DNA of 64,000 nucleotides from Fibrobacteria bacterium (lineage in GTDB: Bacteria > Fibrobacterota > Chitinivibrionia > Chitinivibrionales > FEN-1185): positions 92,701-156,700 of the forward strand of contig JBBIGR010000007.1 of assembly GCA_037447435.1 (NCBI GenBank), in the 5' to 3' direction. Position numbers and translations under genes: made by a program. Below, piece after piece: positions 39,784 through 58,491 of this stretch (within the stretch, counting starts at the first letter, position 1; every line of letters starts with the position of its first letter). Under the pieces are notes generated by a model, which was not told the DNA's origin, did not search any database, and saw nothing but the letters and a program-made list of their open reading frames with translations.

Positions 39784-40962
39784 TTGGCTATAAAAATTGT
39801 TGTAGGTCAGGTGGCCAGCGGAGAGGACTTCTTTAATCGAAAAGAAGAAATTAAAATCCTGTGGCAACGGATTTTATCCGGCAGCAATATTATCCTTGCT
39901 GCACCTCGAAGGGTGGGGAAGACTTCTCTTTTGTGCCATTTGAGGGACAACCCAATAAGTGATTTTCATGTTATTTATATGATTACGGAATCGGTGAATG
40001 ATGAAAATGAATATTATAAGAAAATGTACAAACAAGTGATCTCCGAATTGAAAAACTTTAAAAAATTTTCCAAATATTTAAAGCATTGCACGCAAGAAAC
40101 ATTAGGCCGCATAGAAAAAATATCCATATCGGAAGTTAACGTTCAATTAAGCAAAACCGACCTTAATTATTACGATGAATTTGTTTCACTAATCAAAACG
40201 CTCGATTGCGACAATGAAAGAATTCTTCTGATTGTCGACGAATTTGCCCAAACATTATTAAATATTTCAGGTGATCAAGATGAATCCGCTGCAGTTCACT
40301 TTTTGGAAAGCAACCGGACACTACGACAAATGCCCGAAATCCATAATAAAATCCAATTCGTTTATGCGGGGTCAATCGGACTTGAAAATATCGTGAGTAA
40401 AATGAATGCAATACAAACCATCAATGATTTAAATCATATGCCGATCGGGCCCTTTAGTCACGAACATGCTGGTGAATTGATAAAGGCATTGGCAATGAGG
40501 CCCGGTTTGGTAATTTTGCAGGAACAGATTGAATATATCCTGAAAAAAATCGAATGGCTTATTCCGTATTACATTCAACTCATTGTTCAAGAACTTGACA
40601 CTATGACGATTGACGCAAAAGGGCAAAAAAATATTACCGATGAAATGATTGACTCGTCGTTTAAGCGAATTATTGACTATAGAAATTATTTCGAAAATTG
40701 GCATACCAGATTGAGGGCCGCATATAAAAAGGAGGAGTATAATTTTGCAAAGGAAGTATTAAATAAAATTTCCGAATTAGGATCCATGAAATCCAATGAA
40801 ATATACGATTGTGCAATAAAGCATTCGATGGAAGACGAATTTAAGGATATTGTCAATGCATTGAAACACGATGGTTATATAAATAACAGTCAGACCCCAC
40901 AAATATATCGGTTCAATTCACCCATACTCAAAGCGTGGTGGTATTCGAATGTCGCAAACTAA
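39784..40962 (+). CDS. P-loop ATPase (archaeal-ATPase/STAND-like) with C-terminal winged helix
   Basis: FFNR, APRRVGKTS Walker A, LLIVDEF Walker B, PYYIQ, YRF.SPILK.WW; TTG start after AGGGAGG. Confidence 0.85.
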   Translation: MAIKIVVGQVASGEDFFNRKEEIKILWQRILSGSNIILAAPRRVGKTSLLCHLRDNPISDFHVIYMITESVNDENEYYKKMYKQVISELKNFKKFSKYLKHCTQETLGRIEKISISEVNVQLSKTDLNYYDEFVSLIKTLDCDNERILLIVDEFAQTLLNISGDQDESAAVHFLESNRTLRQMPEIHNKIQFVYAGSIGLENIVSKMNAIQTINDLNHMPIGPFSHEHAGELIKALAMRPGLVILQEQIEYILKKIEWLIPYYIQLIVQELDTMTIDAKGQKNITDEMIDSSFKRIIDYRNYFENWHTRLRAAYKKEEYNFAKEVLNKISELGSMKSNEIYDCAIKHSMEDEFKDIVNALKHDGYINNSQTPQIYRFNSPILKAWWYSNVAN

Positions 40963-43357
40963 TCTCATCGCTCACACATACAATCCGCATAATCAAACGC
41001 AACAGGAATTGATAGACGGTTTTGTCGTACGTAAAAAAGAGTTCGAAGCGTTATATAACGACATTAAAACCGACCCCATGAAACACCCGCCGCAGCATGT
41101 GATTATTCAGGGACGACGCGGCATCGGCAAAACCACATTCCTATTGCGGTTATACTATGAAGTTAGGCAAGATGTTAATGTAAATAAATGGCTTGTGCCT
41201 CTCATTTTCAACGAGGAACAATACAATGTCAGAACGTTGTATAAACTTTGGGAAAACATCGCAATAGAATTGGAAAATGACCAAGAAGAATTTCTAAACT
41301 TGCCGGACGAAATGCAGGCAAAAATCGAAGCGATAAATTATGATGATCTGTGTTTTGAAATTCTTATGAAATCGTTAAAAAAAAACAAAAAGAAACTGCT
41401 TTTGTTGATAGACAATTTTGGAGAAATGCTTCACAAATTCAATGAAAAGGAACAGCATCGTTTTCGTGAAATCCTTATGACGAGCCCGGACATTAAAATT
41501 ATAGGAGCATCATCCGTCGCACTTGAATCGACTTACGATTATTCAAAGCCGTTTTTTGAATTCTTTAAAATCATCGAACTTTCCGGATTGAATAAAGAAG
41601 AAACAATCACCTTGCTGCTTGCACTCGGCGAGCACTATCATAAACAGGAAATAAAAACAATAGTTGAGGAAAACCCAGGAAAAATAGAAGCGTTGCGAAG
41701 GTTGACCGACGGTATTCCACGGACCATGATATTGCTTTTTGAAATTTTCATCGATGATGCGGCAGGTGATTCATTCAAAGATCTTGAAATGGTTCTGGAT
41801 AGGGTGACGCCGTTGTATAAACATCGAATGGACGAACTCTCGCCGCAACATCAGGAGCTTGTCGATATTATTGCCCTGCAATGGGACGCTGTAGCAGTAA
41901 AGGAAATTGCCGCTAAAGCGCGTATGGAAAGCAAGGCGGTATCCGCGCAATTGCGAATGCTCGAAAAAAATAAAATCATCATTAAAAAAGAAACTTCTAC
42001 AAAAAATCATTTGTATCAAATAAGTGAACGGTTTTTCAATATTTGGTATTTGATGCGATATGGAAGAAAAAAGGAAAAAAACCAAGTCCGATGGCTTACG
42101 AGATTTTTGGAAGAATGGTGCAACAGGGAAGAGTTGGTTGAACGGGCGCATAGTCACATGAAAGCCTTGCGAACAAATACAGTATACGAAAATTGTGCTT
42201 ATTACATGACTGAGGCACTTGCGAAAACCGACCTTCCTTATGACGTTCAAGATTCACTTGTGAAGGAAACAAGAAAATATTTAAGGGAAAAAGGAAGTCG
42301 TTTGACCAAAGACTTAAGTGAGTCGGATAGGGAATTGTCAGAAATTGCAAAACAGTGTTTTGATGAAAAAAAATATGATATGACTATTAAAAAGCTAATG
42401 TCAATCCGAACTGTAAATAAAAGTGAAGAATATAATATAGCTTTGTGCCATGATAAGTTAAACAATTATTCACAAGCTGAAAAATATTATAAAATAGCAA
42501 TTAAGAGTGGTCATATTGGAGCAATGAATAATCTCGGAATGCTCTATGAAAAGCATAATGAGTTCGTCAAAGCTGAAGAGAATTATAAAATGGCATGTGA
42601 AAATGGAAATCCAGTGGCTTTGAATAATCTTGCAATTTTTTATGAAAATAAAAAAAAGGATTATATCCAAGCAGAAAAATATTATAAAATATCATCCGAA
42701 AAAGGATATAGTAGCGCGATGTTTAACCTTGCATTATTATATCAAAACTATAAAAAGGATTTAATTAAGGCTGAATATTATTATAAATTGGCTATCGAAA
42801 AAGGGCATGCTGGTGCAATGAATAATCTCGCTATTTTTTATGAAGAACAGAAAAAGGATTGGGTCCAAACTGAATTGTATTTTAAAATGGCATGCGAAAA
42901 TGGCAACAAGTTATCCTTTAGGAATTTAGCGTGGTCATATTTCTTACATGGTGTAAAAAAGGAAATAGCACTTGATTATGTAAAAAAAGCCGTGGAACAA
43001 AATGATGATATAAAAACAAAACTCACCTATGCAATAATTCTTATTTGGAATAATTTAGTTGAAAGTGCTACTGCTATCGCAAAACCAATTTTTGAGGATG
43101 GGGAAATATATAAATTCGAATTGTTAACAAAAACATATTTAATGTTAATTTTGGCAAAAAAGCAATACAGCTTTGCGCATAAACTTTTCACCGAAAGTAA
43201 AATTGAGCTGCGCGAAAGGCTTAAACCAATTTACTATGCACTTATGTATTTCATGAAAAACGAATATCCCGATGAAATGAAGAAAATGGGAAGCGAACTT
43301 GAACAAACCGTTATGGAGATTGTGGAAGAAATAAAGGAAATGGCAAAGACAATGTGA
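40949..43357 (+). CDS. STAND-like ATPase with winged helix and SEL1/TPR repeats
   Basis: YNP, GRRGIGKTT, LLIDNF, GIPR, ERFFNIWYLMR, five AE.YYK.A...G...AM.NL repeats. Confidence 0.85.
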   Translation: MSQTNLIAHTYNPHNQTQQELIDGFVVRKKEFEALYNDIKTDPMKHPPQHVIIQGRRGIGKTTFLLRLYYEVRQDVNVNKWLVPLIFNEEQYNVRTLYKLWENIAIELENDQEEFLNLPDEMQAKIEAINYDDLCFEILMKSLKKNKKKLLLLIDNFGEMLHKFNEKEQHRFREILMTSPDIKIIGASSVALESTYDYSKPFFEFFKIIELSGLNKEETITLLLALGEHYHKQEIKTIVEENPGKIEALRRLTDGIPRTMILLFEIFIDDAAGDSFKDLEMVLDRVTPLYKHRMDELSPQHQELVDIIALQWDAVAVKEIAAKARMESKAVSAQLRMLEKNKIIIKKETSTKNHLYQISERFFNIWYLMRYGRKKEKNQVRWLTRFLEEWCNREELVERAHSHMKALRTNTVYENCAYYMTEALAKTDLPYDVQDSLVKETRKYLREKGSRLTKDLSESDRELSEIAKQCFDEKKYDMTIKKLMSIRTVNKSEEYNIALCHDKLNNYSQAEKYYKIAIKSGHIGAMNNLGMLYEKHNEFVKAEENYKMACENGNPVALNNLAIFYENKKKDYIQAEKYYKISSEKGYSSAMFNLALLYQNYKKDLIKAEYYYKLAIEKGHAGAMNNLAIFYEEQKKDWVQTELYFKMACENGNKLSFRNLAWSYFLHGVKKEIALDYVKKAVEQNDDIKTKLTYAIILIWNNLVESATAIAKPIFEDGEIYKFELLTKTYLMLILAKKQYSFAHKLFTESKIELRERLKPIYYALMYFMKNEYPDEMKKMGSELEQTVMEIVEEIKEMAKTM

Positions 43358-43367
43358 CGGGTGCAAT

Positions 43368-43399
43368 AAAAAAAGGGTGCGCAAGAACGCCCCCTTTTT
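43368..43399. terminator. Bidirectional terminator
   Basis: A-run GGGTGCG...CGCCCCC T-run between convergent genes. Confidence 0.6.
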
Positions 43400-43422
43400 C
43401 GAGATACTAAAAACGGAACCGT

Positions 43423-45000
43423 TTACTTTGCGTATTCCGTAAAGCGGCTTTCGCGGATGATGGTCACTTTGATCTGGCCGGGATATTCCATTTCATCCTG
43501 AATGCGCTGGGCGATTTGCCGTGCGAGTTCTTCGGATTGCGCGTCGGATATCTGGTCGGGTTCAACGATGCACCGGATTTCGCGACCGGCCTGGATCACA
43601 TAGGTTTTCGAAACGCCGCGGAACGAGTCCGCGATTTCCTCAAGCTTGGTGAGCCGGTTGACATAATTTGTCAATGTCTCGCGGCGGACTCCCGGGCGCG
43701 TGCTGGAAATCGTGTCGGCAGCCTGGATAAGAATCGGGTAAACCGATATCGGCGCGACGTCTTCATGATGCGCCGCAATGGCATTGCAGACGATGTCGTT
43801 CTCACCGTTTTTGGAAGCAAGGTCGGCGCCGAGCTGCGAATGCGTGCCCTCGGTTTCGCGGTCGATCGCTTTTCCGATATCGTGAAGCAATCCGGCGCGA
43901 ATCGCAAGTTTGGGATCGAGTCCCAGTTCGCTTGCCATGAGCCCTGAAAGCATGGCCACTTCTTTACAATGCTGAAGCACGTTTTGGCCGTACGACGTAC
44001 GGTATTTGAGCCTGCCGATGAGTTCGACGATTTTAGGCTTAAGACCGTGCACGTCGAGTTCGAAAATCACTTCTTCGGCAGCTTCCTTCATTTTCTTTTC
44101 AAGTTCTTTTTCGCTTTTCTTGATGACTTCTTCGATGCGGCCCGGATGGATACGGCCGTCCACGATAAGCTTTTCGAGCGACATGCGCGCTATTTCGCGC
44201 TTAATGGGGTCAAATCCCGAAAGAATGACCGCTTCCGGCGTGTCGTCGACGATAACGTCGATGCCGGTTGCTTCTTCGAAAGAACGGATATTGCGTCCTT
44301 CACGACCGATAATCCGGCCTTTCATTTCGTCGTTGGGCAAATGCACGACAGACACGGTAGATTCGACGGTCGCGTCTGCGGCGCACCGTTGAATCGCCTG
44401 GACAACGATTTCTTTCGCCTCGTTTTCGGCTTCCGATTTTGCGGTATCTTTGATTTCCTTGATCATTTGCGCGGCCTCGTAACGAACCTGGCCTTCGAGG
44501 TTTGTCATGAGGATTTTTTTAGCTTCTTCCTGAGTCATATGAGAGATTTTTTCAAGCTTTTCATTTTCCATAGCAACGAGTTTCGTCAATTCATTGTCTT
44601 TGTTGCGAAGCGTTTTTTCCTTTGAATTGAGAAAACTTTCCCGCGCTTCGAATTCCTGTTCGCGTTTGCCGATGACATCGTCGCGGCGCTTGAGATCGAG
44701 TTCCATTTCCTTGAGCTTTTGCTGCTCGCCGCGAATCGCTTCGCGTGTTTTTGCAGCTTCTTTTTCAAATTCGGTTTTTGCTTTAAACCATTCGTCTTTA
44801 GCTTCCAACAGTGCGGTTTTTTTGGAAAGTTCCGCTTCTTTTTGCGCCTCGCGCAGTAAACGTTCCGCTTCGTCGCGGCCTTCGGCAATAACCCGTTCCT
44901 TATACTTTTTGTCTGCAATGGTACGCCACATATAGCCAAGCACGAAGGCTGCGGCGCTGCAGACAACACAACCAATTACCAAAATCAATTGCAATGTCAT
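43423..45000 (-). CDS. rny: Ribonuclease Y
   Basis: N-terminal TM and coiled coil, KH domain KGRIIGREGRNIR, HD domain LLHDIGK; ATG after GGAGG. Confidence 0.97.
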   Translation of the reverse strand: MTLQLILVIGCVVCSAAAFVLGYMWRTIADKKYKERVIAEGRDEAERLLREAQKEAELSKKTALLEAKDEWFKAKTEFEKEAAKTREAIRGEQQKLKEMELDLKRRDDVIGKREQEFEARESFLNSKEKTLRNKDNELTKLVAMENEKLEKISHMTQEEAKKILMTNLEGQVRYEAAQMIKEIKDTAKSEAENEAKEIVVQAIQRCAADATVESTVSVVHLPNDEMKGRIIGREGRNIRSFEEATGIDVIVDDTPEAVILSGFDPIKREIARMSLEKLIVDGRIHPGRIEEVIKKSEKELEKKMKEAAEEVIFELDVHGLKPKIVELIGRLKYRTSYGQNVLQHCKEVAMLSGLMASELGLDPKLAIRAGLLHDIGKAIDRETEGTHSQLGADLASKNGENDIVCNAIAAHHEDVAPISVYPILIQAADTISSTRPGVRRETLTNYVNRLTKLEEIADSFRGVSKTYVIQAGREIRCIVEPDQISDAQSEELARQIAQRIQDEMEYPGQIKVTIIRESRFTEYAK

Positions 45001-53422: not shown

Positions 53423-55216
53423 ATGAATACAATAGCAATTTTAGATTTCGGCGGCCAATATACCCATCTCATCGCGAACCGCATACGAAGACTCGGCGTA
53501 TATTCGGAAATTCTTCAAAGTGACGTTGCGGCGGAAAAGTGCTCGCACTATAAAGGTATAATACTGTCCGGTAGTCCGCATAGTACGTTGAATTCCACAA
53601 AACCCGGGTTCGATGAAAACATTCTTAAGTTGAACAGGCCCGTTTTAGGGCTTTGCTACGGGCATCAGCTTATGGCATTGTCGCTGGGAGGAACTGTTGT
53701 TCCGGGGAAATATAGGGAATACGGCAATGCGGTTCTCAACGTTTCCCGAAAATCGCCTTTATTCAAAGGGCTTTCGGATAACGAACAAATTTGGATGAGT
53801 CACGGCGATTCCGTTGAAACCGTTCCAAGCGGTTTCGAAATCATCGGTTCCACCGATCGCTGCGCCGTTGCCGCAATGGGCAACGATGCAAAAAAAATGT
53901 ACGGATTGCAATTCCATCCCGAAGTGACCGATACGCCCAAGGGCATGACCATACTCGATAATTTCATTTCCATATGCGAATGTCCCAGAGACTGGAACAC
54001 CGACACGTTTGTGCGCGAAATGGCGGAAAACATAAAAAAAACGTGCAAAGGAAAGAAAGTCTTTTTGCTTGTATCGGGCGGCGTCGATTCCACCGTTGCA
54101 TTTACTTTGTTGAATAAAGTGCTTGGTAAGGAGAACGTTTTCGGTTTGCACATCGACAATGGATTGATGCGGCACAAGGAATCCGGCCTCATTATCGATT
54201 ATATGAAAGAACACGGTTTCGACAACCTTCGCATAATAGACGCTACCGACACGTTTTTGTCCGCATTAAAAGACGTTTCCGATCCCGAGGAAAAACGGCG
54301 GATCATCGGCACGGTTTTTATCGAAGTTAAGGAAACCGCGATAAAACAATTCGGCCTTAATCCGTCGGAATGGATACTCGGCCAGGGTACGATTTATCCC
54401 GACACCATAGAAAGCGCCGGCACTAAGCATGCCGAACGCATCAAGACGCATCATAACCGGGTCGACGCCATCATGGAATTGCTTGAAAAAGGGGAAATCG
54501 TCGAACCGCTTGCGCTTTTATATAAAGACGAAGTGCGCGACCTCGGCAAGGCATTGGATTTGCCGCGAGAGTTATTGTGGCGCCATCCGTTTCCCGGTCC
54601 GGGCCTTGGGGTCCGGTTATTGTGCTCCGACGGGGCTCCGTATGCTGCCGATGAACAATCGCAGAAGTCGGTTAAGGAAATTTCCCAAAAAGCAGGATAT
54701 GAATCGATAGTGCTGCCGCTTAAAAGCGTCGGGGTTCAAGGCGACGGCCGGACCTATGCCCATCCCGCGCTTGTTTTGGGCAAACGGGACTGGAATGCAC
54801 TTGAAGAATTGTCGACAAAAATTACGAACCTGGTAAAACCCGTCAATCGCGTGGTGTACGGCCTAAAGGTCGACCCTGCGCCCGCATATTCTCTTGTTAA
54901 GGCGTTCGTCACGAAAGACCGGCTCGAAATCCTTCGCGCTTTCGATGCGCTTGTCACCGAGTCGCTGCTTAAATTCGACGAATACGACGTGGTATGGCAA
55001 ATGCCCGTGGTGTTGTTGCCGTGCGTCAATGCCCGCGGCAATCAATGCGCCGTGCTGCGGCCCATCATGTCGCAGGAAGCAATGACCGCCCGCTTTGCCC
55101 GGCTAAAAGACGCCACGCTGGATTATATTGTCACCGAAGCCGCAAACGTCAAGGGCCTCGGCGATTTATTCTACGACGTGACGCACAAACCGCCGGCAAC
55201 CATCGAGTGGGAATAG
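53423..55216 (+). CDS. guaA: GMP synthase (glutamine-hydrolysing), long form
   Basis: LDFGGQY, GLCYGHQ, QFHPEV, SGGVDS, IKTHHN, PFPGPGL, KPPATIEWE. Confidence 0.97.
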   Translation: MNTIAILDFGGQYTHLIANRIRRLGVYSEILQSDVAAEKCSHYKGIILSGSPHSTLNSTKPGFDENILKLNRPVLGLCYGHQLMALSLGGTVVPGKYREYGNAVLNVSRKSPLFKGLSDNEQIWMSHGDSVETVPSGFEIIGSTDRCAVAAMGNDAKKMYGLQFHPEVTDTPKGMTILDNFISICECPRDWNTDTFVREMAENIKKTCKGKKVFLLVSGGVDSTVAFTLLNKVLGKENVFGLHIDNGLMRHKESGLIIDYMKEHGFDNLRIIDATDTFLSALKDVSDPEEKRRIIGTVFIEVKETAIKQFGLNPSEWILGQGTIYPDTIESAGTKHAERIKTHHNRVDAIMELLEKGEIVEPLALLYKDEVRDLGKALDLPRELLWRHPFPGPGLGVRLLCSDGAPYAADEQSQKSVKEISQKAGYESIVLPLKSVGVQGDGRTYAHPALVLGKRDWNALEELSTKITNLVKPVNRVVYGLKVDPAPAYSLVKAFVTKDRLEILRAFDALVTESLLKFDEYDVVWQMPVVLLPCVNARGNQCAVLRPIMSQEAMTARFARLKDATLDYIVTEAANVKGLGDLFYDVTHKPPATIEWE

Positions 55217-55219
55217 TAG
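55196..55219 (+). repeat. attL-like direct repeat (guaA 3' end)
   Basis: Identical to 57724-57747. Confidence 0.92.
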
Positions 55220-55226
55220 TTAGCCG

Positions 55227-55260
55227 ATAAAAGGGGATAATAAAATCCCCTTTATTATTT
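55227..55260 (+). terminator. Terminator after guaA
   Basis: AAAGGGGAT...ATCCCCTTT followed by T-rich run. Confidence 0.6.
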
Positions 55261-55369
55261 CTAAACCTCATTTTTGTTTTTTTATCATATTCTTTTAAAT
55301 TGTGGTAGATAATAGGCTTCTCATGTTTTTTAACAGTATGCGTACTTTTCTTTTATTGCCGAATGGGGT

Positions 55370-55520
55370 TTTGCATTTTGCCTGTCGGCAGTGTCACAAC
55401 CTGACATATGAAAGCTGCAATGAAAGCCATAAATTTGATTCTCTTTTTAGGTCGATAGCTTTTAGCCAAGGGCTTTCTATGAAAGAAGCAAAACAAGCTT
55501 TATTGGATAAGATTTTATAA
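55370..55520 (+). pseudogene. Remnant of a mobile-element zinc-ribbon gene
   Basis: FACRQCHNLTYES motif with no credible N-terminal part. Confidence 0.45.
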
Positions 55521-55887
55521 ATACTGCCTCAGAAATCTGCTTAAGGTACTCCCAAAGCTTTTTTAAATCAGGTTGTAGTCGTAGCCTCAGAGTTTTTGTG
55601 TGAGAAAATTTGAAAATTGGGAAAAACGTAATTTTTAATAAAAGTATACTTTCTGATGAAAAGGGCAGCCTTGTAAAACTGTTGATTATTTAAGGCAATA
55701 TCATATAATTTAGAAAAGACAGATAAAATTCAAATAAAACACACCTACCCAACGGATTATAGTACTAAGCTGTTTTTTTTATTTTTGCTTTTAAATATCA
55801 ATGAATATTAAAGAAATAAAAAAACACTTATAAACCTTATTATTCCATTTAGTATTGAAAATCTAAAATTATAAATAAAGGAAAAAT

Positions 55888-56586
55888 ATGTCCAGGAACA
55901 AAGTGGTTATACCCGTAGCTGGAAGAAAAGCTTTGTTGAGCCTATTACAAATTGGAAACGAAAAAAGAGAGAAATTACACCAACTTCTTTCTACTATTGA
56001 GCCTGCTATGTTTGCAGAAAAAATTGTAGACCAAATTATCAGTAAAATTGATTTAGGAAAAAAACATCTTGAAGATATAATAAGCACAATTTTTGATCTT
56101 TATTTTAATGCTTGGAAATCTGGAAAAGAAATTAGCAATTTTATAACTTTAGCAATTAATAGCATAAATGACGAATGTTCTAGCCCTGATGATAAAATTG
56201 TAACAAGCGAACAACAAAAAATATTAATTGATTATTTACAAAAAGTAGTAGCTTTGGATCAAACAGTTGGGATTTCTGCAAAAGGTATAGCTCTTTCAAT
56301 AGGAAATGCAAAATTGTTTTCAACTGCAAATGTGTATACTGATATTCGACCATGTTTTCCTGTAGGTTTTGAAAAGGAATTTTTAGGTGGAATAATATTG
56401 CATCAGCTTGAGATAAATTATTATGAAGAGGGTGGTTCGAAACAAGTGTATTTGACGCTTGATACTTGTGATGTTGCTGCTTTAAAAGAGCAATTAAATA
56501 GAGCGGAAGAGAAAGAAAAGTATCTACGAAGTAAAAAGAATTTAAATAACTTTTGCTTCATTGATAATGATATTCCTAAAGATTAA
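55888..56586 (+). CDS. Hypothetical protein, predicted COMMD-like (helical N-domain plus COMM-like C-domain)
   Basis: 232 aa, AAGGA SD; helical N-region then VYTDIRP / IILHQLEINY / QVYLTLD strands and amphipathic helix DVAALKEQLNRAEEK. Confidence 0.55.
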   Translation: MSRNKVVIPVAGRKALLSLLQIGNEKREKLHQLLSTIEPAMFAEKIVDQIISKIDLGKKHLEDIISTIFDLYFNAWKSGKEISNFITLAINSINDECSSPDDKIVTSEQQKILIDYLQKVVALDQTVGISAKGIALSIGNAKLFSTANVYTDIRPCFPVGFEKEFLGGIILHQLEINYYEEGGSKQVYLTLDTCDVAALKEQLNRAEEKEKYLRSKKNLNNFCFIDNDIPKD

Positions 56587-56627
56587 TTAGTATAAAAATT
56601 AAAACAAATTTACCGAAAGCTTTCTAA

Positions 56628-57266
56628 ATGGAAAATTTATCGACTTTGCTTGATTATGAAAATAAAAGAAGCAATGATGTCGTTAATCAAATCTTAGAAA
56701 AAGAAGGAAATTACCAAAGCTTTAGCCCTAAGAACTATTTAGAAACTTACAAAAGTCCTAGATTCAGAGGCTTTTTCCAAGTTGTTCCTATTCCAATTGC
56801 AAAAGATTGGATGAAAGCAATAACCAAAGAACCTTCAGGAACTTTTAGGTGCGATATTCTTATGGCAGATGAGAGTGAAATTTTAAAAGTGATATCTGAA
56901 GCCGAAGAGTATCTAGATTGGAAAGAAGATTGGGACGATAATGGTGCTAAACCTTTTGAAAGAAAAACATTTGAGAGAGCTAAAAAGTTTCTTTTAGATT
57001 GTAACAGATATATCCGAAATAAATTTAATTTTAAAATTAAAGCACCAGATATTTTGCCAGGTCAAAATGGATCGTTTAAAATTTTTTGGGATATATCTAA
57101 TTTTAAGCTTCTTTTAACAATCCCTGAAAATGATTTAACAGCTATTTCTTATTATGGAGAAGATAATACTAAAACGCAAACTATTGAGGGGAAATTTACT
57201 GAAAGTGTACATGCAACCGGCCTTTTCATTTGGATATATGAAGAAATGAAAAATGTCACTCTTTGA
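56628..57266 (+). CDS. Hypothetical protein, antitoxin/immunity-like
   Basis: LDWKEDWDDNGAKP...PDILPGQNGSFKIFW pattern; overlaps the next gene. Confidence 0.55.
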   Translation: MENLSTLLDYENKRSNDVVNQILEKEGNYQSFSPKNYLETYKSPRFRGFFQVVPIPIAKDWMKAITKEPSGTFRCDILMADESEILKVISEAEEYLDWKEDWDDNGAKPFERKTFERAKKFLLDCNRYIRNKFNFKIKAPDILPGQNGSFKIFWDISNFKLLLTIPENDLTAISYYGEDNTKTQTIEGKFTESVHATGLFIWIYEEMKNVTL

Positions 57267-57624
57267 AAAAGAGAATATCCTTGATAAATGCCACGTTTTT
57301 TACAGGCTGCACCAATCTTTTTTTAATAAGAAAGGAAAGCTTTCACCAGGTGTTTTTCAGGATAGGGGTAATGGAATGTCGGTGGATTGGAAAAAATATT
57401 CCACACCAGAAGAAACCCAAATGAGAGCTCCTAAAAACCCAAAATTAAATAAAATTGGAGAATTGAATGTTGGAGAAATTAGGAAAATTGAATTAAAAGT
57501 TGAGCATACGCCTGATGAATTAACTAGAAATAGAGCCCATTCAGATGTTTTTGGTACCAAAAGCGAAAAAGTACAATTGGCACTATGGGAACTTTGTCAA
57601 AATAAAATTTATACTATTCAGTAA
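57253..57624 (+). CDS. Small putative ADP-ribosyltransferase-fold (Tse2-like) toxin
   Basis: VFYR, GMSVD, NRAHS motifs in R...S...H arrangement; 123 aa. Confidence 0.55.
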   Translation: MSLFEKENILDKCHVFYRLHQSFFNKKGKLSPGVFQDRGNGMSVDWKKYSTPEETQMRAPKNPKLNKIGELNVGEIRKIELKVEHTPDELTRNRAHSDVFGTKSEKVQLALWELCQNKIYTIQ

Positions 57625-57723
57625 TATACTTAGATTCAATCTTGCTTTAAAACTAAGTTTTTGTTACCCACATGTTACTCGCCTAAAATAATCCTTCTAT
57701 AAATCAATTGCTTAAGCAATACA

Positions 57724-57899: not shown

Positions 57900-58097
57900 A
57901 TGAAACTGCAAAGAGTTCTTTCCGTTGGCAATATGAATGATGGTTTCCGGGGAGCGATAGCAACGAAACATTTGACCCCAAGCCAGAGGCTTTCACATTT
58001 AGAAGACTTGCGCCGGGACGCAGCAAGAATATTTAACTATGAATATCCAAAAAGACTTCGAAGAGTTCTTGAAGTTGTTGAACAAAAAAAAGGTTGA
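57900..58097 (+). CDS. Small hypothetical partner of the nucleotidyltransferase
   Basis: LTPSQRL..LE.LR...RL.RVLEVV; overlaps the downstream gene. Confidence 0.55.
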   Translation: MKLQRVLSVGNMNDGFRGAIATKHLTPSQRLSHLEDLRRDAARIFNYEYPKRLRRVLEVVEQKKG

Positions 58098-58491
58098 ATA
58101 TGTAATTGTTGGTGGTTATGCAGTTGCATTTCATGGCTATATTCGACTGACAAAAGACCTTGATATTCTATTCAGGAACACCAAATTAAACATTCTTAAT
58201 CTCCGAAGTGCCTTAAATCACTTTGGTTTTCCTTCCGACAGCTTGGAGGACGTTGCTTTTTCAGAGCAAGGAAAAATTATTAGAATGGGCGTTTCTCCGG
58301 TCATGATTGAGCTGATTAATGCAATAAGTGGTGTGGACTTCGAAACTGCCTGGAAAAATCGGATAATAGGCCCCTATGGCAAAGTAGAAACTTTTTTCCT
58401 ATCAAAGCCCGATTTGCTGAAAAATAAAAAAGCATCAGGAAGACCTCAAGACCTTGCCGATATTGAGGAATTAAAAAGTATAGAAAACTAA
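58039..58491 (+). CDS. Pol-beta superfamily nucleotidyltransferase (DUF6036-like)
   Basis: YVIVGGYAVAFHG..R.TKDLD, K.ASGRPQDLADI. Confidence 0.85.
   Translation: MNIQKDFEEFLKLLNKKKVEYVIVGGYAVAFHGYIRLTKDLDILFRNTKLNILNLRSALNHFGFPSDSLEDVAFSEQGKIIRMGVSPVMIELINAISGVDFETAWKNRIIGPYGKVETFFLSKPDLLKNKKASGRPQDLADIEELKSIEN

Follow-up and report, generated by a model that had tools for sequence, protein, structure and literature searches.

A bacterial COMMD-like protein heads a three-gene cassette with a swappable toxin-like pair in an islet behind guaA

In the 64,000-nt stretch of Fibrobacteria DNA that was analysed (the window), an islet behind guaA was found to carry three consecutive genes, the first of which encodes a protein that, as judged by sequence comparison and a structure model, is a true bacterial relative of the ring-forming COMMD trafficking proteins and adds a member to a family described only recently. 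What is new is the context, namely a cassette in which this gene stands before a toxin-like pair. By analogy with known systems, the cassette is rather likely to be a tripartite toxin–antitoxin system, in which a COMMD ring would control the pair through the tail of the antitoxin and so take a SecB-like role. It is probably a new variant of such systems and would give the COMMD-like family a testable function. The three genes are as follows:

55888..56586, + strand: gene 1, COMMD-like protein of 232 aa, with an HN domain (residues ~10-139) and a COMM domain (143-215)
56628..57266, + strand: gene 2, putative antitoxin of 212 aa, with a variable N-terminal tail of ~86 residues and a conserved ‘WD..GA’ core
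57253..57624, + strand: gene 3, putative toxin of 123 aa, with a modelled ADP-ribosyltransferase (ART)-superfamily fold; overlaps gene 2 by 14 nt

Gene 1 starts with ATG, and an AAGGA motif ends 5 nt upstream. When an exhaustive HMMER search was performed (E ≤ 0.001), relatives aligned over nearly the full length were found in 2418 clusters at 50% identity, which argues that the ORF did not arise by chance; 149 of the best 150 relatives were similar in length. According to the AlphaFold2 model, computed from a 150-sequence alignment (pLDDT 93.3, pTM 0.83), residues 10-139 are helical and form the HN domain typical of prokaryotic COMMD-like proteins, and the C-terminus consists of three strands (143-156, 167-180 and 183-191) and a long helix (193-215), as in a COMM domain. 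The first-pass annotation, made from the letters of the window, had claimed a helical N-region, three strand peptides and a long C-terminal helix; both helical parts were modelled at the residues just given, and the peptides (147-155, 167-178 and 185-192) lie inside the modelled strands. Within the family, the COMM part was better conserved (0.51) than the helical part (0.32).

The search of the PDB by sequence gave a single match, the COMMD-like protein MBK5214510 (9q6a; phmmer E 3.8e-14), which the gene 1 profile matched with E 3.2e-43. When the model was searched with Foldseek, the check that the first-pass annotation had proposed, 9q6a came first (TM 0.75) and human CCC/Commander chains came next (E 4e-6 to 5e-5). 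The same order was obtained with VIA-align against 48,161 chains, where 9q6a (Z 15.1, rmsd 3.2, 212 residues aligned) was followed by human COMMD chains (Z 7.1-8.1). Isolated COMM domains were matched by the COMM domain of gene 1, with Z 7.9 for 8esd_S (rmsd 2.5, 69 residues) and Z 7.1 for 6bp6. Pur-alpha and PC4 gave weak matches (Z 3.7-4.7). Two candidates for the closest fold were rejected: CT584/Cpn0803 (Z 5.3, rmsd 13) and Pur-alpha.

No Pfam family was matched by gene 1 (neither COMM_domain nor COMM_HN), nor any NCBIfam or PADLOC entry, and weak COMM_HN matches were seen in 2 of 150 relatives (best E 0.009). In the ESM Atlas, the clusters matched at 0.94-0.95 carried no name, and a cluster with COMM_domain in 23% of its members was matched at only 0.79; a word-based protein search found 2 proteins. 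No plasmid match was found for gene 1 or for the gene 2 core, and no significant viral fold match was obtained. The homologue is present as a single copy in the genome, which is 99.6% complete.

Prokaryotic COMMD-like proteins were published in 2025-26 with their function left open (Liu et al., Nat Commun 2026, PMC13392464). The first-pass annotation had presented gene 1 as a prokaryotic COMMD homologue, and the homology was borne out by the MBK5214510 sequence match and by the COMMD folds in Foldseek and VIA-align; the family itself, having already been reported there, is not a new discovery. Octamers and decamers of MBK5214510, a direct homologue of gene 1, have been solved (PDB 9q6a/9q6c/9q6d; PMC13392464), and by inference from them the gene 1 protein may form strand-swapped dimers and 8- or 10-membered rings. 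MBK5214510 resembles gene 1 in sequence, in its HN plus COMM fold and in being a single copy per genome. Eukaryotic COMMD1-10 share the two-domain fold at 10-14% identity; they are ten genes forming a hetero-decamer, whereas the window genome gave one match, and, unlike them, the cassette has a toxin-like pair as its partners. The context analysis in PMC13392464 covers Myxococcota (with T6SS-like neighbours), Chlamydia and Haloarchaea, which carry other subfamilies than that of the window, and reports no predicted complexes with neighbours there. The words ‘toxin’, ‘phage’, ‘defence’ and ‘defense’ have 0 occurrences in its main text, from which the toxin-pair cassette is absent. COMMD homologues of Asgard archaea are reported in the available part of PMC12962969. 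In literature covering few of the subscription journals, no report linking COMMD to antitoxins, or by its title or abstract to toxins, was found, and no mention of DUF7689, TIGR04255 or PF24738; PDC-M32 is mentioned in passing.

The gene 2 tail, of ~86 residues, could not be aligned between relatives, and the conserved core is C-terminal. In the window this tail has a single Trp and several Phe/Tyr. The core matched the C-terminal part of PADLOC PDC-M32A (E 2e-4, profile positions 267-352 only), and such a match was obtained for 18 of 29 members of the core family. PDC-M32A has 375 aa, with an N-terminal domain of ~250 aa fused to the core, a domain that gene 2 does not have; PDC-M32 and cassettes led by TIGR04255 share with the window the WD..GA core and a related ART-like gene. 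Gene 2 had no Pfam match above the cut-off and no NCBIfam match. No solved structure was found by sequence with the gene 2, gene 3 or TIGR04255 profiles.

Gene 3 was modelled with pLDDT 95.4. Its top VIA-align match was the NAD domain of Tpt1/KptA (Z 8.9, rmsd 3.1, 96 residues aligned), followed by AvrPphF (Z 6.8) and by DarT, Tse2, Tne2 and TreX (Z 5.2-5.5); ART-fold proteins made up nearly all of the 50 matches listed, and the model has the split sheet of the ART fold. Foldseek gave no match for gene 3 under E 0.001. ART catalytic triads follow the pattern R-S-E or H-Y-E. In the gene 3 family, S43 and H96 are conserved at 90% or more and R18 and H20 are majority residues; no conserved Glu was found, and the family appears to fit neither pattern. 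On the strength of the modelled fold, gene 3 may be a toxin with an NAD-using activity.

The cassette lies in an islet with the following features:

55196..55219, + strand: left direct repeat of 24 nt, attachment-like, covering the last codons and the stop of guaA
57724..57747, + strand: right direct repeat of 24 nt, 100% identical to the left copy, at a spacing of 2528 nt
55220..57723, no strand assigned: inserted islet of ~2.5 kb, 30.3% G+C against 45.6% in the genome
55302..55520, + strand: ORF of 72 aa with a CxxC motif, the only other + strand ORF of at least 70 aa in the islet
55682..55709, + strand: best sigma70-like site upstream of the cassette (10/12 positions), not above chance

No copy of the repeat other than these two was found in the genome. 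The islet was searched for an integrase-sized ORF, and none was found; the 72-aa ORF, which has a weak zinc-ribbon match below the cut-off (E 0.04), is probably the remnant of a mobile-element gene. Sigma70-like sites were at chance level (11 observed, 11.9 in shuffles). In G117, a genome of the same genus, 290 nt separate guaA from the downstream DUF6036 gene, which in the window adjoins the islet on its right; 294 nt would be expected with the islet removed, and the two spacers align, so that an empty site is seen in the relative. The cassette was absent at guaA from all four relatives with a guaA match. Of 251 genomes from the phylum, two were found to have gene 1, and the second (G121, locus L002) has the same three genes next to a different neighbour gene. 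The islet is spanned without mismatch by a contig of the probable source run, which is not independent evidence; no joint across the islet was found in three contig sets, an uninformative result. The DUF6036 nucleotidyltransferase gene lies at 58039-58491 of the window, and the conserved spacer before it may hold a small partner gene. A second low-GC stretch (37-39%) is present at positions 40001-44000 of the window.

The arrangement recurs throughout the family. Two short motifs, used in three collection scans, led to 159 loci, to which two genome loci were added; a COMMD ORF was present in 160 of the 161, and the context was counted for the 127 of these 160 with at least 1100 nt downstream. 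A helical ‘HPAY’ protein and a DUF7689 protein, the latter read as a putative Cys/His papain-like enzyme, follow COMMD in 71 of the 127 loci, and WD..GA plus ART, as in the window, in 31, so that one of two main pairs is present in 102. In 8 further loci the third gene is of a toxin type by its Pfam label (PIN 2, Fic 2, and one each of MazF, RES, aspartyl protease and HEPN, the last below the cut-off). The others are membrane pairs (2, classified by eye), partial pairs (6) and other arrangements (9). At 50% identity, 54 clusters were obtained, with HPAY plus DUF7689 in 20, WD..GA plus ART in 19 and a toxin-type third gene in 5. Among the hosts are members of Acidobacteriota, Planctomycetota, Nitrospirota, Pseudomonadota, Actinomycetota, Cyanobacteriota and Myxococcota, together with one Thermoplasmata archaeon. 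Different pairs were found behind COMMDs that are 61% identical. In a quick tree of 65 rows, built without metagenome loci, short ORFs and the loci counted as partial or ‘other’, 12 label changes were counted, and one swap was nested under SH-aLRT 97-99. COMMD is always the first gene of the cassette, and a DNA-binding domain could not be recognised in most gene 2 products. A single cluster of 123 gene 2 products was rejected as a linkage artefact, since it splits into two unrelated families.

The first-pass annotation had placed gene 1 beside a toxin and had suggested an immune role. The toxin-like gene is in fact two genes downstream, with gene 2 between them. The putative immune role is favoured by the family-wide linkage to toxin-like pairs and by the ART fold of gene 3; against it stand the missing PADLOC match of gene 1 and the fact that most relatives lie outside defence islands, with housekeeping genes around them. 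When 150 of 168 flanking ORFs picked were scanned, with no control set, no defence-island signal was found: the labelled ones were mostly housekeeping genes, and about a dozen were transposases, toxins or nucleases. tRNA genes were present in 9 of 57 loci (again with no control set), and 1 locus on a viral contig was found among 63 candidates. An IS1595-family transposase adjoins the COMMD cassette at L040, L053 and L056 and is a possible vehicle.

The reverse searches, performed with the cores of the second genes, returned other leaders, fusions and stand-alone cores, and COMMD can therefore be said to fill an exchangeable first slot. In 452 genomes, the gene 2 core was found at 24 loci. Their first gene is TIGR04255 in 16, COMMD in 1 (the seed) and unlabelled in 1; one core is fused as in PDC-M32A, one is fused to TPR, and four stand alone with short N-termini (16-38 aa before the core). 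Of 151 genomes, 7 were found to have the HPAY core; among six loci examined, one is led by COMMD, one is a COMMD fusion, one is an IrrE/PAS fusion, one lies behind a small gene, and two are stand-alone genes in which 60-86 residues still precede the core. TIGR04255, which leads the same WD..GA plus ART pair at the 16 loci within L170-L190 with a Ser/Ala-rich tail type of its own, is probably a second and commoner keeper family; no profile similarity between it and COMMD was found (probability 0.5%). At L195:1965-2318, an unlabelled beta-rich gene of 117 aa stands before an HPAY plus DUF7689-like pair and is a candidate keeper. At L194:1498-3264, the HPAY core is fused to an IrrE-like metallopeptidase and PAS domains, and a DUF7689-like gene follows.

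The tails differ with the leader. Behind COMMD, their median length is 76-78 aa, and Trp makes up 3.6% (n=27) and 3.2% (n=76) of them in the two core families, which are unrelated. Tails led by TIGR04255 have a median of 54 aa and contain 1.3% Trp (n=15 of 16; L182 was left out, its boundary being unusable). In long ORFs of the genome from which the window comes, Trp amounts to 1.2%. The contrast between COMMD-led and TIGR04255-led tails (p ~3e-4) is overstated, as related loci do not count as independent, and the choice of start codons was mechanical. Tail type tracks the first-slot gene and not the core. Beyond Trp, no linear motif common to the tails was found.

When the N-terminal part of the L193 fusion was used as the query, which favoured fusions containing the HN domain, 33 proteins were obtained, and 7 of them are in-frame COMMD–HPAY fusions. 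Four junction types were seen, at COMMD residues ~121, 138, 139 and 155, with these examples:

L193:1048-1761: COMMD–HPAY fusion upstream of a DUF7689 gene
P0160, P0179, P0182 and P0186: further COMMD–HPAY fusion proteins

In all four types the HN domain is intact and most of the COMM domain is gone; the tail is mostly gone in three and nearly whole in one (P0179/P0180). Intact cassettes of the same lineage are present at L200 and L201. The fusions fit a physical link between COMMD and the HPAY protein; they all come from one lineage and could also be simple decay.

The known systems nearest in design are CmdTAC and HigBAC. As the available sections of PMC11618068 and 10.1101/2024.02.24.581848 describe them, a SecB-like tetramer binds aromatic residues of the antitoxin's disordered tail, and a phage structural protein competes for binding, and with the antitoxin lost the toxin becomes active; in the latter source, TAC antitoxins depend on these aromatic residues. 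To the extent of these sections, the window cassette shares with them three genes, a putative toxin of ART fold (as CmdT is), a putative antitoxin whose long tail would be aromatic and disordered, a probably oligomeric third protein and swappable toxin modules, and the COMMD–HPAY fusions, mostly tail-less, recall the tail removal that frees the TAC pair from its chaperone (10.1101/2024.02.24.581848). There the chaperone is a SecB tetramer, whereas in the window a COMMD-fold protein comes first in the gene order; the TAC tail is C-terminal, whereas the variable tail of gene 2 is N-terminal and its C-terminus is the conserved core; and the H-Y-E pattern of CmdT appears to be absent from gene 3. 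No SecB-like chaperone candidate was found in the islet. Since both the SecB fold and the C-terminal tail are missing, the cassette is not a TAC member.

In the proposed mechanism, gene 3 would be an NAD-using ART-fold toxin that the conserved core of gene 2 neutralises. The COMMD ring would keep the antitoxin stable by binding its N-terminal tail, which would be disordered and rich in aromatic residues. A competitor protein, most likely phage-derived, or a stress signal would displace the tail from the ring, the antitoxin would then be lost, and the toxin would be released. Tripartite control is supported by the linkage to two pairs and to toxin-type third genes, the pair swapping, the exchangeable first slot, the tail trend, the fusions, the low-GC islet with its direct repeats and the empty site in a relative, and the dependence of TAC antitoxins on aromatic tail residues. 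Counting against it, Tpt1, the best fold match of gene 3, is a non-toxin, no Glu is conserved in the gene 3 family, gene 1 has no PADLOC match, and the flanking genes give no defence-island signal. The single Trp of the window's gene 2 tail, the lack of a common tail motif beyond Trp, the two stand-alone HPAY genes with 60-86 residues before the core, the single lineage of the fusions and the negative complex predictions of Liu et al. for other subfamilies count against it as well. An anti-phage trigger in particular is possible, at somewhat below even chances.

Other readings of the same loci were weighed. The ring might make direct contact with the folded antitoxin core or with the toxin, as a scaffold or trigger, or might itself be the sensor that turns the pair on; the tails would then be protease or degradation handles for host enzymes and not ligands of the ring. 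Such a role would suit the HN domain kept next to the core in the fusions, the P0179/P0180 type with its almost whole tail and the lack of a common tail motif; it is nevertheless judged unlikely, given that behind COMMD the cores have unrelated folds, with the tail type alone in common. Of still lower probability is a selfish addiction or stress module of the same wiring, which would stabilise the islet or slow growth with no sensing of phage. Stand-alone insertions among housekeeping genes, an integrase-free islet kept at guaA and the one viral-contig locus among 63 candidates speak for it, whereas 2418 clusters at 50% identity, toxin swapping and a pair common to PDC-M32 are typical of defence genes.

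The least probable reading, an improbable one, makes COMMD either the transcriptional regulator of its operon, in line with the likeness of COMM to the nucleic-acid-binding folds of Pur-alpha and PC4, or a passenger of the pairs. COMMD being always the first gene, the weak fold matches (Z 3.7-4.7) and the rarity of recognisable DNA-binding domains among gene 2 products would agree with it. However, the composition of the tail follows gene 1, the surface required for binding nucleic acids appears to be missing from COMMD-like proteins (PMC13392464), and a passenger would not be linked as tightly as COMMD is, in 110 of 127 loci.

That a COMMD protein heads a mobile three-gene cassette with a swappable pair, in the window and in many other microbes, points to control of a bacterial toxin by the ring, and the cassette offers a small, soluble, three-gene test system with the prediction that the ring holds the antitoxin tail. 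If true, a non-SecB class of tripartite toxin–antitoxin systems would extend over many phyla (2418 clusters at 50% identity), and a central trafficking complex of eukaryotes would have its ancestry tied to bacterial conflict systems. The HN domains of eukaryotic COMMDs engage CCDC22/CCDC93, according to the available part of 10.64898/2026.02.02.703414. A joint proposal, which we hold to be doubtful, is that most rings of the window's COMMD-like subfamily are phage- or stress-sensing keepers of toxin–antitoxin pairs through disordered aromatic tails; that the Commander ring descends from a conflict-system scaffold, with the binding of CCDC22/CCDC93 by the HN domain re-using the tail surface; and that TIGR04255 is a second keeper family for the same toxin modules.

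P0192 is a COMMD of 165 aa in which the HN domain is internally deleted and the COMM domain is intact. The third genes of L093, L135 and L140, behind COMMD, encode a third, unlabelled effector family of ~225-237 aa, with a His...Cys pattern and no Pfam match. At L161, a cassette of COMMD, an unlabelled gene and Fic is carried on a 64-kb IMG/VR contig.
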